A stretch of DNA of 44,061 nucleotides, taken from the sequence record PP920550.1; one strand, written 5' to 3'. The translations under genes and the position numbers were made by a program. Positions 36,807 to 41,695 of this stretch are shown in pieces; the stretch's first letter is position 1; each line of letters begins with the position of its first letter. The stretch is from Escherichia phage Dru_SM5. Under the pieces are notes generated by a model, which was given only the letters and a program-made list of their open reading frames with translations, made no database searches and was not told the DNA's origin.

Positions 36807-39071
36807 ATGAGCTTAATTAAATTCGCTGTAACACGACCCGCTAAAAAAGGCGAAAAAGCCAGGGCGGAAAACTTCCAGATGACTACCGAAGAGTTTTTCG
36901 AATTTATCAATGACGCGAAAGAAATCTCCTCGGTGCATATTAACAAAACGGAAGATAAAGCGGAGTATGCACGCCGCAAGCGTAAGGCCGATGGCATTGT
37001 GGCTTATACCAGTGACGGCTTACGTCGCAAGACCAGTGCGGTGGACCGCTCGATCCTGTTCTTCGATATCGACCGTACTGACACCCGCACCCTGCGCCGC
37101 TGCCGTAAGGCGTTCATCGACGCGGGACTGGAACATGTATTTCACACCACTACCGGCGACCGCCACCCGCTGAAAGGGGGCACGCGTTGCGCTCGTTTCC
37201 TGGTGCTCACCGATAAGCCTGTACCGGCTGAAGACCTGGGCCGCGTCCAGTATGCACTATTACACCAACTGGGTCTGTCAGATGTGGACTTCGACGATTG
37301 CACGAAAGACACAAACCGCCTGATGTACCTGCCACACCAGCAGTCTGTTATTAAGTGCCACTACGGCAAGCGTGCCCGCGTCCGTCGTCTGCTTCGCCTG
37401 GCTGATAAGCTGGGAATGGAAAAAGAGGAAGTACGACGCGAACTGACCCAGGGCGATGACGGCGTGGCGGACGGTATTCTGGATTGGTGCTTCCAGGCAG
37501 GATTCGAACCGCTGTCGTCCGGTCGTGGTTATGAAGTGCCATGCCCGAACGAACACCTGCACAGTGGTGAAGGGTCCACCGCTATCATGGTTAAGGATGG
37601 CGAGATCCGTTTCAAGTGTATGCACACCGGCAACGAGTGTTGCTCGGAACTGAACAGACACCAGCACCTGGCGCTACGTCTTATCGGGATCCCGGACCAC
37701 CTGAACGTCGAACCGCACAACATGTCACGTAAGCAAATCGCCGCCATCCTCCCAGGTCTGGACGACGAGGAAGTGGAATCGTGCTATGAACATATCGTTG
37801 ATGCGGTCGGAGACGGCGACGAGTACGGCGTGTGTACTGATGCAGACCTGGACAACGAGCCGGTCGCACTGTTCAGTAAGCACGACCCGATCATCGAAGG
37901 CCTGGTCAACTTCAAATCGACCTGGTATCTCGCCGGTGAGTCGAACATTGGCAAGTCGTTCTACGTGCTGGGCCAGATGGCGTCAGTATCTGCCGGTATT
38001 CCGTTCGGCGGTGCGAAGGTCGTCCAGTCTCATTGCTTCTATTTCGATGCGGAAGGTGGTGAGGCCCCCAACCAGCGTAAAGAAGCATTGCAGATTAAAT
38101 ACGAGCACGACCTGGACAAGCTGCACATTATAGACCTGCAGTCACGCGGCTGGGATATCACCAGCAAATCAGGCTTGCGCGAAGTTATCAGCTTTATCAA
38201 CCGCACCGCTAACGGCGAACCGGTTGGCCTGGTGGCGTTCGACTCACTCAACCAGACTGTTGCGTTGCGGTCCGCTGATGCTAAACCGTTCGACGAGAAC
38301 AACGCCAGCGATATGGGTGAAGTGGTCAAAGCGCTGAAGGCCATCGCGGAAAATACAGGTGGCAGTGCGGGCGTCATCCACCACCCGGCTAAAGGTGCAA
38401 ACGGCAGCAGAACCCCCCGAGGGTCCGGCGCGCTGCATGGTGCTGTCGATTCTGCGTTCTTCCTGGAACAGCCGGACGACAACCAGCCCGGACAATTGAA
38501 CCTGTATCATGAGAAGTCACGTAACGGCATCAAGCAAGCGCCGCGCGGCTTCGTCCTGCTCAAGTGCAAGGTGAAGGTGGATCTCCGCAAGTCAGAAGCG
38601 TTCGAGGCGCACCAGTCCACCAGCACCGGGCCAGACTTCGGCGACGTGGTTGCCGGATGGGACGTCAAGCCGATTGCCTCCACGCCACGCGACGAGACTC
38701 TCTACCTCGTACCGGTTGCCCTGGCACCGTTCGCTATTGAACAGGCGAAGGCCTCGGGCAAAGCAGCAGTTAAAGAAGAGAACACCGCCGGACCGCGCAA
38801 CGAAAAAGAGAAAGTGCTTTATGCGGCACTGGAAAAACTGATGGAAGATAACCCGGACCATACTGGATTCAGTAAATCGGCAATTGTCCGCCAGGCTGGG
38901 CTGGCAAAAGGTGGCACTTCGACGAAGGCAATCGACGATATGGTGGAGCGAGGAGTGATAGGTTTTTACACCGATCCGCACACTGGGGCCATCTATGGGT
39001 CGTCTAATTTGGTCATCAAATCGGATATCCCTATCACGCTTTCAGCGACCGATGACGACTTAAAAGATTAA
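36807..39071 (+). CDS. DNA primase/helicase (primase-polymerase-like N-terminus + P-loop ATPase)
   Basis: N-terminal FFDIDRTD (AEP/prim-pol-like DxD), a Cys/His zinc-binding segment, Walker A GESNIGKS and Walker B LVAFDSLNQ. 754 aa. Confidence 0.6.
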   Translation: MSLIKFAVTRPAKKGEKARAENFQMTTEEFFEFINDAKEISSVHINKTEDKAEYARRKRKADGIVAYTSDGLRRKTSAVDRSILFFDIDRTDTRTLRRCRKAFIDAGLEHVFHTTTGDRHPLKGGTRCARFLVLTDKPVPAEDLGRVQYALLHQLGLSDVDFDDCTKDTNRLMYLPHQQSVIKCHYGKRARVRRLLRLADKLGMEKEEVRRELTQGDDGVADGILDWCFQAGFEPLSSGRGYEVPCPNEHLHSGEGSTAIMVKDGEIRFKCMHTGNECCSELNRHQHLALRLIGIPDHLNVEPHNMSRKQIAAILPGLDDEEVESCYEHIVDAVGDGDEYGVCTDADLDNEPVALFSKHDPIIEGLVNFKSTWYLAGESNIGKSFYVLGQMASVSAGIPFGGAKVVQSHCFYFDAEGGEAPNQRKEALQIKYEHDLDKLHIIDLQSRGWDITSKSGLREVISFINRTANGEPVGLVAFDSLNQTVALRSADAKPFDENNASDMGEVVKALKAIAENTGGSAGVIHHPAKGANGSRTPRGSGALHGAVDSAFFLEQPDDNQPGQLNLYHEKSRNGIKQAPRGFVLLKCKVKVDLRKSEAFEAHQSTSTGPDFGDVVAGWDVKPIASTPRDETLYLVPVALAPFAIEQAKASGKAAVKEENTAGPRNEKEKVLYAALEKLMEDNPDHTGFSKSAIVRQAGLAKGGTSTKAIDDMVERGVIGFYTDPHTGAIYGSSNLVIKSDIPITLSATDDDLKD

Positions 39072-39182
39072 ATTCTGCGCGCATTGGTTGCCGATATGGG
39101 AATTCCCATATCGCTAAACGATTAATTTGTGCGCGTATTGGTTGCCATTTTGCGTGTTTTTATCTGGTCGTATTGGTTGCCG
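39066..39182 (+). repeat. direct repeats flanking a perfect 22-bp palindrome (origin- or operator-like)
   Basis: 27 bp direct repeats at 39066-39092 and 39120-39146 (GATTAAATTCTGCGCGCATTGGTTGCC and a near copy), a partial third at 39170-39182, and the perfect palindrome CGATATGGGAATTCCCATATCG at 39092-39113. Confidence 0.7.
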
Positions 39183-39206
39183 TGTAGTGTAAATATAATG
39201 AATAGT

Positions 39207-39393
39207 TATGCAGTTTTATTGCATAAAGTAAGCGGGACAGAAAGCGGGACAAACAAGAGGCGGGACAAAGCGGGACAGCACCCCCGTCCCGCCCCGGATG
39301 ACGCGGCCTGGCGAGGAGCGGGACAGGCGGGACAAACCCAAGTCTTTCAGACTAGACGGGGGTCCATGGCCCCCCTCGTCTGAGACTGAATAA
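39207..39393 (+). repeat. GGGACA-iteron + GC-hairpin element, copy B
   Basis: About 187 bp paralog of 11735-11923: TATGCAG..TGCATAAA, four CGGGACA iterons, two more, then a near-identical conserved hairpin block. A TATAAT box at 39195-39200 sits just upstream. Confidence 0.8.
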
Positions 39394-39548
39394 AATCCGG
39401 GGATTGCAAAATACACGGCAGCATGATGCGAAGGGCGGTCGTCGATGAACCAGGCAACCAATGCGGGTTGCATTATGCTGAGTGAAAAATGCAGTTTGCA
39501 GTTGCAGCAGATAGCGATCAACTTTTTCATGCGCGTGATTAATATTGG

Positions 39549-39577
39549 TTGCATTCAGCCTGGAGCCTTGATATATT
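39549..39577 (+). promoter_or_regulatory. candidate promoter for the 39606 operon
   Basis: TTGCAT, 17 nt spacer, TATATT, then RBS ATGAGGA and the ATG at 39606. The -35 hexamer lies inside an ATTGGTTGCAT motif. Confidence 0.4.
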
Positions 39578-39605
39578 GGTTGCACACCAACATGAGGACT
39601 GAACA

Positions 39606-39932
39606 ATGAGAGCGATTATCTGGAATTACGCAATGGCTATGGCGGCGGCACAAGAAGCGGCGGAGTTCGCCGGTGAAGGAGCGGAAGCGGTCGAAAGACT
39701 ATCGGCAGCGTGGTCCGTTGTTCGCGTTACGCAGCAGGCCATCGCCTGTATGCTGGAGCGCCGCTTCGACACTATGGCAGAGATTCAGCCACTGGCGAAC
39801 GCTATCCAGGATTACGCGCTTGCCTTTGCCCGTGAGCGCCTGGCGTATCGCTTCGGGATCGGCGAGACGGCAGTGACTAACGTCGCCCGGATTAAAGCCC
39901 AGCGTGAGCTATTCTCCCAGCTTGCGAAATAA
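39606..39932 (+). CDS. hypothetical protein
   Basis: 108 aa with RBS ATGAGGA. Ala-rich. Confidence 0.55.
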   Translation: MRAIIWNYAMAMAAAQEAAEFAGEGAEAVERLSAAWSVVRVTQQAIACMLERRFDTMAEIQPLANAIQDYALAFARERLAYRFGIGETAVTNVARIKAQRELFSQLAK

Positions 39933-39941
39933 GAGGCCAAA

Positions 39942-40211
39942 ATGACCCGTAGACGCGCAAAACAGCTTTCGTGGCATATTCCCCTGCATTGCATACGAAT
40001 ATGGGCTAAGAATGCGAATGCGGGGGATTCTGTATTCTGGTGTTATCGCGACGACGTTAAGCCGTTGACGCAGACTCGCTACTTGCACCAGTTCGCAGCA
40101 CAACACGATTTCAGGGTGCGGACTTCCTTGCAACCAATGGGGATTCGTATTACATTACGCCGAAAGCCCGCCATTGAGCGGGTAGGCAAACACTGGAGAC
40201 TGAGCAAATGA
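39942..40211 (+). CDS. hypothetical protein
   Basis: 89 aa basic protein; its stop overlaps the next ATG. Confidence 0.45.
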   Translation: MTRRRAKQLSWHIPLHCIRIWAKNANAGDSVFWCYRDDVKPLTQTRYLHQFAAQHDFRVRTSLQPMGIRITLRRKPAIERVGKHWRLSK

Positions 40212-40360
40212 CACCAATGCAAATAACGCTAATGGCAGGGTATTCGCAGCAATTCGTAGACCTGTTATCTTGCATTGCGGACTATGAGATGGACGGCATC
40301 GCTACGGTGTGCGATGGCGACACGAAGACTGTCGACGAGATTGAGGAGACTGAGCAATGA
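40208..40360 (+). CDS. small acidic hypothetical protein
   Basis: 50 aa ORF (MTPMQITLMAGYSQQF...EIEETEQ). Below the track cut-off; ATGA overlaps at both ends. Start context GGAGACTGAGCAAATG is repeated before the next gene. Confidence 0.35.
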   Translation: MTPMQITLMAGYSQQFVDLLSCIADYEMDGIATVCDGDTKTVDEIEETEQ

Positions 40361-40943
40361 AATTACTATTCCGCCGTAAAGCAGATGGCTACCTAATGCG
40401 GCCGATCCAGGCCCTTGCTACATGCGTGCGCTTGCGCCATGTACACAGCGGACTTGAGTGCCTGGCAGATACGGTTCACCTACCGGCAAACTTTGACGTA
40501 CTCACACATGATATTGAGCGCGGCGATGTTCTGCGTGACATTCGCGACGGGCAGCTATGGATCGTGGAACGCACCTACCGGAACGCACCTACCGGAACGG
40601 CCTGCGTATGCAGACCCGCAAGGGCGGCGTAGTGGGTAACGTTCAGAGGGGTATGACTTACTTCGGCCTTGTCAACTACGAACGAGTGGGCCGCAAATAC
40701 TGCCTACGCAACCGCCAGCCTCATGACCGCGTTGAGTTCCGCAAGTCGCAGCCCGCCTATGCCACCTACGACGCCCACCAGGTGCAGGCGAGGATGAAAC
40801 GCACCGCGCACGAAATCGTCAATCGCTTTGATGCCGTGACAAACGCACAGCGCCATGCGCAGGGATACGGCGTTGGATTCATCCGGGTGGAACGAGACGG
40901 CAGCATGAAGGCCATCGACCCGCGCTCGGTGATTCTGAAATGA
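40357..40943 (+). pseudogene. gene disrupted by 14-bp tandem duplication (frameshift)
   Basis: GAACGCACCTACCG occurs twice in tandem (40567-40580 and 40581-40594). Removing one copy joins track ORFs 40357..40632 and 40557..40943 into one roughly 191 aa frame (...IVERTYRNGLRMQTRKGG...), verified codon by codon. Confidence 0.6.
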
Positions 40944-41064
40944 GTGCGACGATCCGCGATATGCTTCAGCATAACCGCTTTGAGATAGGCGGTCGGGTAT
41001 TTCGCAATTACTTCGTGGCGCGGGCATGGGCGCGCCATATTGGCAAACCAGAGGGGGCAATACG

Positions 41065-41352
41065 ATGCTACACGATTTGATATATTGGTTTGGATTGGGG
41101 TGCGCGACACTCTTTGCCACGGTGCTGGCGCTGTTGGTATGGGTGTTCCTGATTTGGCCCGCGGTGGAGGCAGCCAGCATTACCCGCATGACGTTCCAGA
41201 TATACAAGCGCCGGGGCATAACGGAGCACCCGACCAGGTTGCGTATGTGGTGGTTGTGGTATAGGGATATGATAGGCGGTCGAACATTCGAAGCCGTCCG
41301 GTCGAGTGGATGGGAGTGGAAAGGCGTCGGCAAGTGGTCCATTTTCGATTAA
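41065..41352 (+). CDS. membrane protein (lysis-cassette associated)
   Basis: ATG at 41065 follows a GAGGGGG RBS. N-terminal TM helix (LIYWFGLGCATLFATVLALLVWVFLIW), Trp/Arg-rich C-terminus. Confidence 0.5.
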   Translation: MLHDLIYWFGLGCATLFATVLALLVWVFLIWPAVEAASITRMTFQIYKRRGITEHPTRLRMWWLWYRDMIGGRTFEAVRSSGWEWKGVGKWSIFD

Positions 41353-41404
41353 ATACGCAAGCGTGATATAGTCCCAGTGAGCTAAAACTTACTGGGACTT
41401 TTTT

Positions 41405-41695
41405 ATGGATAAGCTAAACGAGTGGTTATTCGCCCTTGCGTGTCTTGCTGGTGGCTTCGTGGGCGCACGCATTCACGGCGAGGCAACGAAAGGGCCGTTG
41501 AACTTCGTTTTATATGTCGTAGTTGGCTTCCTGTGCGCCATATTTGGTGCGCCAGCCATTGCCGAGTGGTCTGGTTTGTCCGGTGAGCGCACTGTCGCCG
41601 GTTTGGGCTTCGTAACTGCAATCTTCTGGATGCCAATAGCCGCCCGGATCAGGGAGACTATTGAGTCGTTCCGACTTCCGGGGGGCGCAAAATGA
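41405..41695 (+). CDS. putative holin
   Basis: 96 aa with about three hydrophobic TM segments and a charged C-terminus. Two genes upstream of the endolysin. Confidence 0.55.
   Translation: MDKLNEWLFALACLAGGFVGARIHGEATKGPLNFVLYVVVGFLCAIFGAPAIAEWSGLSGERTVAGLGFVTAIFWMPIAARIRETIESFRLPGGAK

Follow-up and report, generated by a model that had tools for sequence, protein, structure and literature searches.

A perfect 14-bp tandem duplication splits gp52 of Escherichia phage Dru_SM5 (sequence record PP920550.1) into two overlapping reading frames in the 44,061-base stretch of DNA analysed here (hereinafter designated the window, at its full length). We consider it highly probable that this is a recent replication-slippage duplication, which shifted the reading frame of gp52 and left the gene as a young pseudogene or a truncated allele.

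The tandem duplication and the split reading frame

The segment 40566–40599 reads GGAACGCACCTACC GGAACGCACCTACC GGAACG, with the two copies of the 14-mer arranged head to tail and no spacer between them. Tandem Repeats Finder describes the same interval as a repeat of period 14 with 2.4 copies, 100% matches, 0 indels and the consensus GGAACGCACCTACC. The features that define the repeat and the broken gene are as follows.

40566–40579, plus strand: first copy of the 14-bp unit GGAACGCACCTACC, placed by Tandem Repeats Finder, by the sequence itself and by the 14-mer positions
40580–40593, plus strand: second copy of GGAACGCACCTACC, placed by the 14-column gap in relatives; either copy could equally be called the inserted one
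40594–40599, plus strand: GGAACG, second half of the 6-bp direct repeat that flanked the 14-bp unit before it was duplicated, as read from single-copy relatives
40357–40632, plus strand: ORF1, the N-terminal gp52 fragment of 91 aa, consisting of 76 native and 15 out-of-frame residues (APTGTACVCRPARAA) and ending at a premature TAG at 40630–40632
40557–40943, plus strand: ORF2, the rest of gp52 in the shifted frame, 128 aa, with native residues 71–190 encoded from 40581
40632–40655, plus strand: possible re-initiation starts GTG 40632 and ATG 40653, proposed from Shine-Dalgarno-like pairing energies
40849–40851, plus strand: codon 165 of the repaired gene, downstream of the frameshift, GGA (Gly) compared with GAA (Glu) in SM_S24

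The duplication is more than a chance pattern. On both strands of the window, the 14-mer GGAACGCACCTACC occurs only at 40566 and 40580. Among perfect repeat runs in the window that equal or exceed their period in length, only the one at this locus, with 20 matched bases at offset 14, is longer than 11 bases; the next-best perfect runs are 11 bases at offset 9 and 10 bases at offset 8. By our own arithmetic, 20 matches in a row at a given offset would be expected by chance about 44,000 x 4^-20 times, or ~4e-8. A preliminary description of this DNA, made from the sequence alone, had reported the same duplication as two copies of GAACGCACCTACCG at 40567–40594, that is, in a register one base to the right, and had named the open reading frames 40357–40632 and 40557–40943, both of which are present in the ORF list in different frames. 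It had further stated that deletion of one copy would merge the two frames into a protein of about 191 residues. The frames do merge, across the junction ...DGQLWIVERTYRNGLRMQTRKGGVVG... exactly as it was quoted, and only the size needs correction: removal of one 14-mer leaves 573 nt, corresponding to 190 codons and a stop (hereinafter designated the repaired gene and its product the repaired protein).

The nearest relative, SM_S24, has one 573-nt CDS (gp52) annotated at the same place. Together with UDS3lw, TheodorHerzl and KarlBarth it makes four annotated relatives with one CDS each, of 561–573 nt, at the gp52 position, and alignment with these relatives leaves a clean 14-column gap opposite one repeat copy in all four. 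The repaired gene differs from that of SM_S24 by only two bases, one of which is responsible for the Gly at codon 165, and the repaired 190-aa protein is 98.9% identical to SM_S24 gp52. When the repaired protein was used as a tblastn query, 14 of 14 related loci returned one HSP in one frame, whereas the window returned frame 1 for aa 1–77 and frame 3 for aa 69–190, the sole split among the 15 sequences. The central claim of the preliminary description, that the duplication has divided one gene into two overlapping ORFs, is therefore borne out by the single-CDS relatives and by the uninterrupted frame of all related loci compared.

The same picture holds across larger collections. At least 80% of the repaired protein is covered in 146 of the 155 matching phage records, and 38 of the 40 matches listed are single full-length pieces. 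A large protein database contains 430 homologues, and the best 120 of these 430 are 174–217 aa long with 99–100% coverage. Orthologues in relatives, which the preliminary description had allowed might be two separate genes with independent starts, are thus single genes. The repaired protein also matches the PHROG 10243 profile end to end (residues 1–190 against profile positions 1–184 of 184, E = 1.3e-83), a family annotated as 'unknown function'.

The 14 extra bases shift the gp52 frame by +2. Ribosomes loaded at the strong gp52 initiation site, where the Shine-Dalgarno sequence GAGGAG lies at 40343–40348 with a pairing energy of -9.3 kcal/mol, would add 76 native residues followed by 15 wrong ones and would stop at the premature TAG in the middle of the second predicted barrel. 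The other 120 gp52 codons stay open in another frame, in an ORF that overlaps ORF1 by 76 nt and begins at an ATG (40557) without its own ribosome-binding site. This ATG is accidental, lying out of frame inside Leu-Trp codons. It has no Shine-Dalgarno sequence, its pairing energy of -2.8 kcal/mol being close to the median (-3.0) of the 647 ATGs scored in the window, and no sigma-70-like promoter was found anywhere in 38900–41500; on these grounds we reject independent translation of ORF2 from ATG 40557. The early TAG and the lack of a ribosome-binding site at ATG 40557 together argue that this dispensable accessory gene is here a pseudogene of recent origin or, in the best case, a severely truncated allele, and point to loss of gp52 function in this allele. 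The allele may be less than a complete null, since the natural 89-aa form in phage JL1 indicates that the C-terminal module alone can persist.

Origin of the duplication

The ancestral single-copy sequence GGAACGCACCTACCGGAACGG, which is found in SM_S24 and in the contig IMGVR_UViG_3300045988_011231, contains GGAACG twice, 14 bp apart. Slipped-strand mispairing during replication classically duplicates exactly the distance from one short direct repeat to the next, and we infer it as the mechanism of the duplication. In the recent ancestry of this genome, replication would have slipped between the two GGAACG hexamers, 14 bp apart in gp52 codons 70–76, and the slippage would have led to GGAACGCACCTACC being copied a second time. 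The 100% identity of the two copies indicates that the event is recent. There are 322 direct-repeat pairs of at least 6 bp at 7–30 bp spacing in the window, and with so many comparable microhomology pairs the site is neither special nor a designed hotspot. The event is an ordinary replication-slippage mutation of a familiar kind, with no new mechanism or biological principle attached to it. Of the three explanations offered in the preliminary description, a recent inactivating mutation is the one best supported.

Classic cases for comparison are the Streisinger-type slippage mutations, such as the T4 lysozyme and rII frameshifts and the lacI CTGG hotspot. As in those cases, the perfect tandem duplication is bounded by a short direct repeat of the unduplicated sequence, the length of its unit is not divisible by three and so produces a frameshift, and precise loss of one copy can revert the mutation. 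The present case differs in that it is not a recurrent hotspot: two copies arose in one event, at a site with nothing remarkable about it.

The evidence also favours a duplication that is real in the phage stock over one that was introduced by library amplification, sequencing or assembly and circularisation into the record of a phage whose gp52 is really intact. The allele is found in no other sequence of any collection searched, an exact look-up of both fragment proteins found neither on record in a 153-billion-gene collection, and polymerases in vitro can also slip at microhomologies, all of which would be compatible with such an artefact. However, platform errors are typically 1–2 nt homopolymer indels and not perfect 14-bp duplications, and for an assembly error, overlap-trimming would have to coincide with a 6-bp microhomology, a coincidence that we estimate by our own arithmetic at about 1 in 4096. 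As a check on the assembly, all 59 annotated SM_S24 genes were translated and searched against the window; 57 of the 59 CDSs match it, and all but gp52 do so as a single HSP in a single frame. Since none of the other 56 genes common to SM_S24 and the window is frame-split, there is no general indel noise in the assembly.

Further evidence against an artefact lies downstream of the duplication. Residue 165 is Glu in 118 of 120 homologues and invariant in a 36-sequence alignment, and codon 165 of the repaired gene encodes Gly. The codon falls in the stretch that the duplication has put out of frame. E165G, although a single substitution, looks as relaxed constraint would, and a change at this near-invariant position fits a gene that was already dead. 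Damage to gp52 is, moreover, common in real isolates. Given the microhomology, the frame-clean assembly and E165G, the sequencing error that the preliminary description had listed as an option is unlikely, and we leave it a small share of the probability.

Lesions in other isolates and alternative readings of the split gene

Four further isolates carry damaged forms of gp52. Escherichia phage JL1 (JX865427; 5210–5479 of the locus compared, minus strand) encodes an 89-aa homologue with an in-frame deletion of residues 9–108 (MKLLFRRK joined to YCLRDRQ...); the deletion apparently runs between two R-K-encoding microhomologies and removes both predicted beta-barrels. Phage BF9 (about 1356–1668 of the locus compared) retains only residues 136–190, fused in frame to the end of an additional copy of the 50-aa gene that precedes gp52, where its annotation has a gap, and phage PNS1 (1501–1710 of the locus compared) retains only residues 1–68. 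The downstream 46-aa ORF is missing from the PNS1 annotation. In Escherichia phage JLBYU60 (OK272474; 301–852 of the locus compared), an in-frame stop (...ESKVR-stop-HIDNARK...) occupies the position where phage Lust has Gln, and the annotated CDS is 133 aa long. These four phages resemble the present one in that the PHROG 10243 gene is truncated or disrupted in a viable, plaque-forming phage, and differ from it in the type of lesion: JL1, BF9 and PNS1 carry deletions and JLBYU60 a nonsense codon, whereas the tandem duplication is found only in the window. The independent damage in four plaque-forming phages argues that gp52 is dispensable, and because such damage is both recurrent and tolerated, one more broken allele is unsurprising.

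The short form in JL1 bears on the possibility that the split gene is partly functional. After termination at TAG 40630–40632, re-initiation at GTG 40632 or ATG 40653 could produce a C-terminal protein of 96–103 aa that would resemble the JL1 short form, in which case the N-terminal barrels would be lost and not the whole gene. GTG 40632 overlaps the ORF1 stop (TAGTG), is accompanied by the Shine-Dalgarno-like AAGGGCGG (-6.8 kcal/mol) and would give a 103-aa product; ATG 40653, 21 nt downstream, is preceded by AGAGGGG (-7.7 kcal/mol) and would give a 96-aa product. A free-standing C-terminal part also has precedents, as JL1 naturally encodes only MKLLFRRK plus aa 109–190 and BF9 keeps aa 136–190 fused to another ORF. 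Within the gp52 family, conservation is highest in the C-terminal block, and a separate family, PHROG 27442, covers only aa 136–190 of the repaired protein. On the other hand, the Shine-Dalgarno-like elements lie 1–4 nt from the start codons, closer than the optimal spacing, and E165G changes a near-invariant residue of exactly this C-terminal module. Judged from these signals, a partly functional product of this kind is improbable.

A further possibility concerns selection rather than expression. Five independent gp52 lesions are counted among ~155 Dhillonvirus genomes (the duplication here, the JLBYU60 nonsense codon and the JL1, BF9 and PNS1 deletions), and loss or truncation of gp52 might have been selected and not neutral if a host defence senses the N-terminal barrels or if they carry a cost on laboratory hosts, with the allele keeping the C-terminal module. 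We regard this as doubtful. Were it true, re-initiation at TAGTG or at ATG 40653 would leave a self-sufficient C-terminal module like the JL1 short form. ORF35 (anti-Tmn) and nmad5 are identified in the Dhillonvirus anti-Tmn paper (PMC11846954), whose passages on defence evasion considered here do not mention gp52; nor is it implicated in the passages on SECphi4 of a phage-escaper survey (10.1101/2022.08.27.505566). Our literature search found no paper linking Dhillonvirus with tandem duplication.

The preliminary description had also proposed a slipped-strand on/off switch, and this programmed form of phase variation, in which the copy number of the 14-mer would toggle gp52 within the phage population, is without support and very improbable. 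Tandem duplications are unstable and can be lost precisely by slippage, and a 20-bp perfect repeat such as this one makes the allele reversible in principle. However, the repeat has two copies only, and more than one copy is found in no other genome or contig searched. The two-copy junction is absent from the IMG/VR and JGI metagenome contigs scanned, among which a scan for either copy number returned one contig, with an identical single copy. The 14-mer also lies in a variable segment that is not conserved among relatives (ERTYRN / EHTSQH / EYVGLH), its site is one of the 322 comparable 6-bp direct-repeat pairs at 7–30 bp spacing, and other lineages inactivate gp52 by unrelated lesions. The locus resembles bacterial simple-sequence-repeat contingency loci in having a tandem repeat within a coding region whose copy number decides whether the frame is open. 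It differs from them in having no tract of many units, in that the repeat is not conserved at the locus, and in that the copy number does not vary across the more than 150 related genomes compared or across the contigs of IMG/VR and the metagenomes that were scanned for the junction.

Programmed ribosomal frameshifting, by which a -1 shift anywhere between 40594 and 40629 within the 76-nt overlap would rejoin the frames and restore a full-length product, is effectively refuted by the lack of any in-frame X XXY YYZ slippery heptamer in ORF1 and by the absence of the two-ORF layout from every relative, and we assign it a negligible probability. The arrangement recalls the -1 frameshift of the lambda G/GT-type tail assembly chaperones in its overlapping ORFs in different frames within a siphovirus genome, but the G/GT layout is conserved across relatives, whereas the layout here is unique to one genome and has no slippery heptamer.

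The young pseudogene or truncated allele preferred here has its main significance in annotation and quality control. ORFs 40357–40632 and 40557–40943 are best annotated together as a single disrupted gene, a gp52 / PHROG 10243 pseudogene, and not as two hypothetical proteins. The duplication, together with JL1, BF9, PNS1 and JLBYU60, supplies data points for the dispensability of gp52 in plaque formation, which is of use in choosing deletable loci when Dhillonvirus phages are engineered, as has already been done in this genus by in vitro assembly and rebooting (PMC11846954).

Predicted structure and genome context of gp52

An AlphaFold model was made for a 92%-identical orthologue with a 36-sequence alignment. 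The pLDDT is 85–91 over residues 1–80, the N-terminal half is all-beta to about residue 110, and the C-terminal helix is of low confidence. On the basis of this model, gp52 is predicted to consist of two small SH3/Tudor-like beta-barrels and a conserved C-terminal module, and the frameshift would break the modelled chain in the hairpin formed by strands 67–73 and 77–82. Searches of Pfam and NCBIfam gave no match for gp52, and a BFVD fold search returned only family members and weak matches.

Two candidate functions were rejected. The orthologue in UDS3lw (vB_EcoS-UDS3lw, PQ658967; 758–1330 of the locus compared) is labelled 'HNH endonuclease, similar to ... KarlBarth', while the KarlBarth record itself reads hypothetical; there is no HNH signal in the Pfam, NCBIfam or fold searches, and the label looks like an annotation error that could propagate. 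The second candidate is mimicry of the RNA polymerase omega subunit. The block most conserved among close family members (EIVNRFDAVTNAQRHAQEYGVG, residues 141–169, encoded at 40777–40863) is 50% identical over 28 residues to residues 6–33 of E. coli RpoZ, and a profile search of PDB sequences returned, at E = 0.15–0.41, only omega-subunit chains with the E. coli RpoZ N-terminal sequence. Alignment of the gp52 block with RpoZ by hhalign gave a probability of 41% and a pairwise P of 2.7e-4, and the Pfam family RNA_pol_Rpb6 has no match in gp52. The omega N-terminal helix motif tested was NRFxLVxxAxxRA, and the divergent family members SECphi4, Lust and JLBYU60 lack NRFD. With marginal statistics and the motif missing in divergent members, the resemblance is probably due to chance.

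In the contig IMGVR_UViG_3300045988_011231, a stretch at 1367–1609, directly upstream of the intact gp52, is 33% identical to family residues 36–116 in another frame and may represent a diverged partial paralogue.

The window is a near-complete genome of a Dhillonvirus, a HK578-like E. coli siphovirus. For its first 25 kb, 160 phage records match, with a top identity of ~94%; for the 1 kb around the duplication there are 156 matching records, of which Escherichia phage SM_S24 ranks first at 97.9%. The genes are arranged in the order primase/helicase (36807–39071), intergenic region, a run of small genes, gp53 homologue, terminator-like hairpin, holins and lysozyme. Within the small-gene run, gp52 is flanked by two short reading frames.

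40208–40360, plus strand: 50-aa ORF preceding gp52, its stop sharing an ATGA with the gp52 start; conserved in relatives, where it is also annotated
40940–41080, plus strand: 46-aa ORF following gp52, its start sharing an ATGA with the gp52 stop; annotated in UDS3lw, KarlBarth and TheodorHerzl

ATGA stop/start overlaps chain four small genes together, namely 39942–40211, 40208–40360, gp52 and 40940–41080. The 46-aa ORF has no Shine-Dalgarno sequence of its own (-3.0 kcal/mol), and because of this and its ATGA overlap it probably depends on gp52 translation. By polarity, the frameshift in gp52 would then probably deprive this coupled downstream ORF of expression as well.

A strong intrinsic-terminator-like hairpin of 12 pairs followed by a T run lies at 41370–41399, after the gp53 homologue and ahead of the first holin gene; the small-gene operon with gp52 probably ends there. 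On the other side of the run, the intergenic region after the primase/helicase gene (39072–39605) is packed with iteron-like repeats and may serve as an origin of replication or in regulation. AGCGGGACA(A/G) occurs there in about 5–6 copies within 39231–39336, and (C/A)GTATTGGTTGC(C/A) in ~6 copies, one of them inverted (39083, 39135, 39170, 39453, 39542 and 39573).
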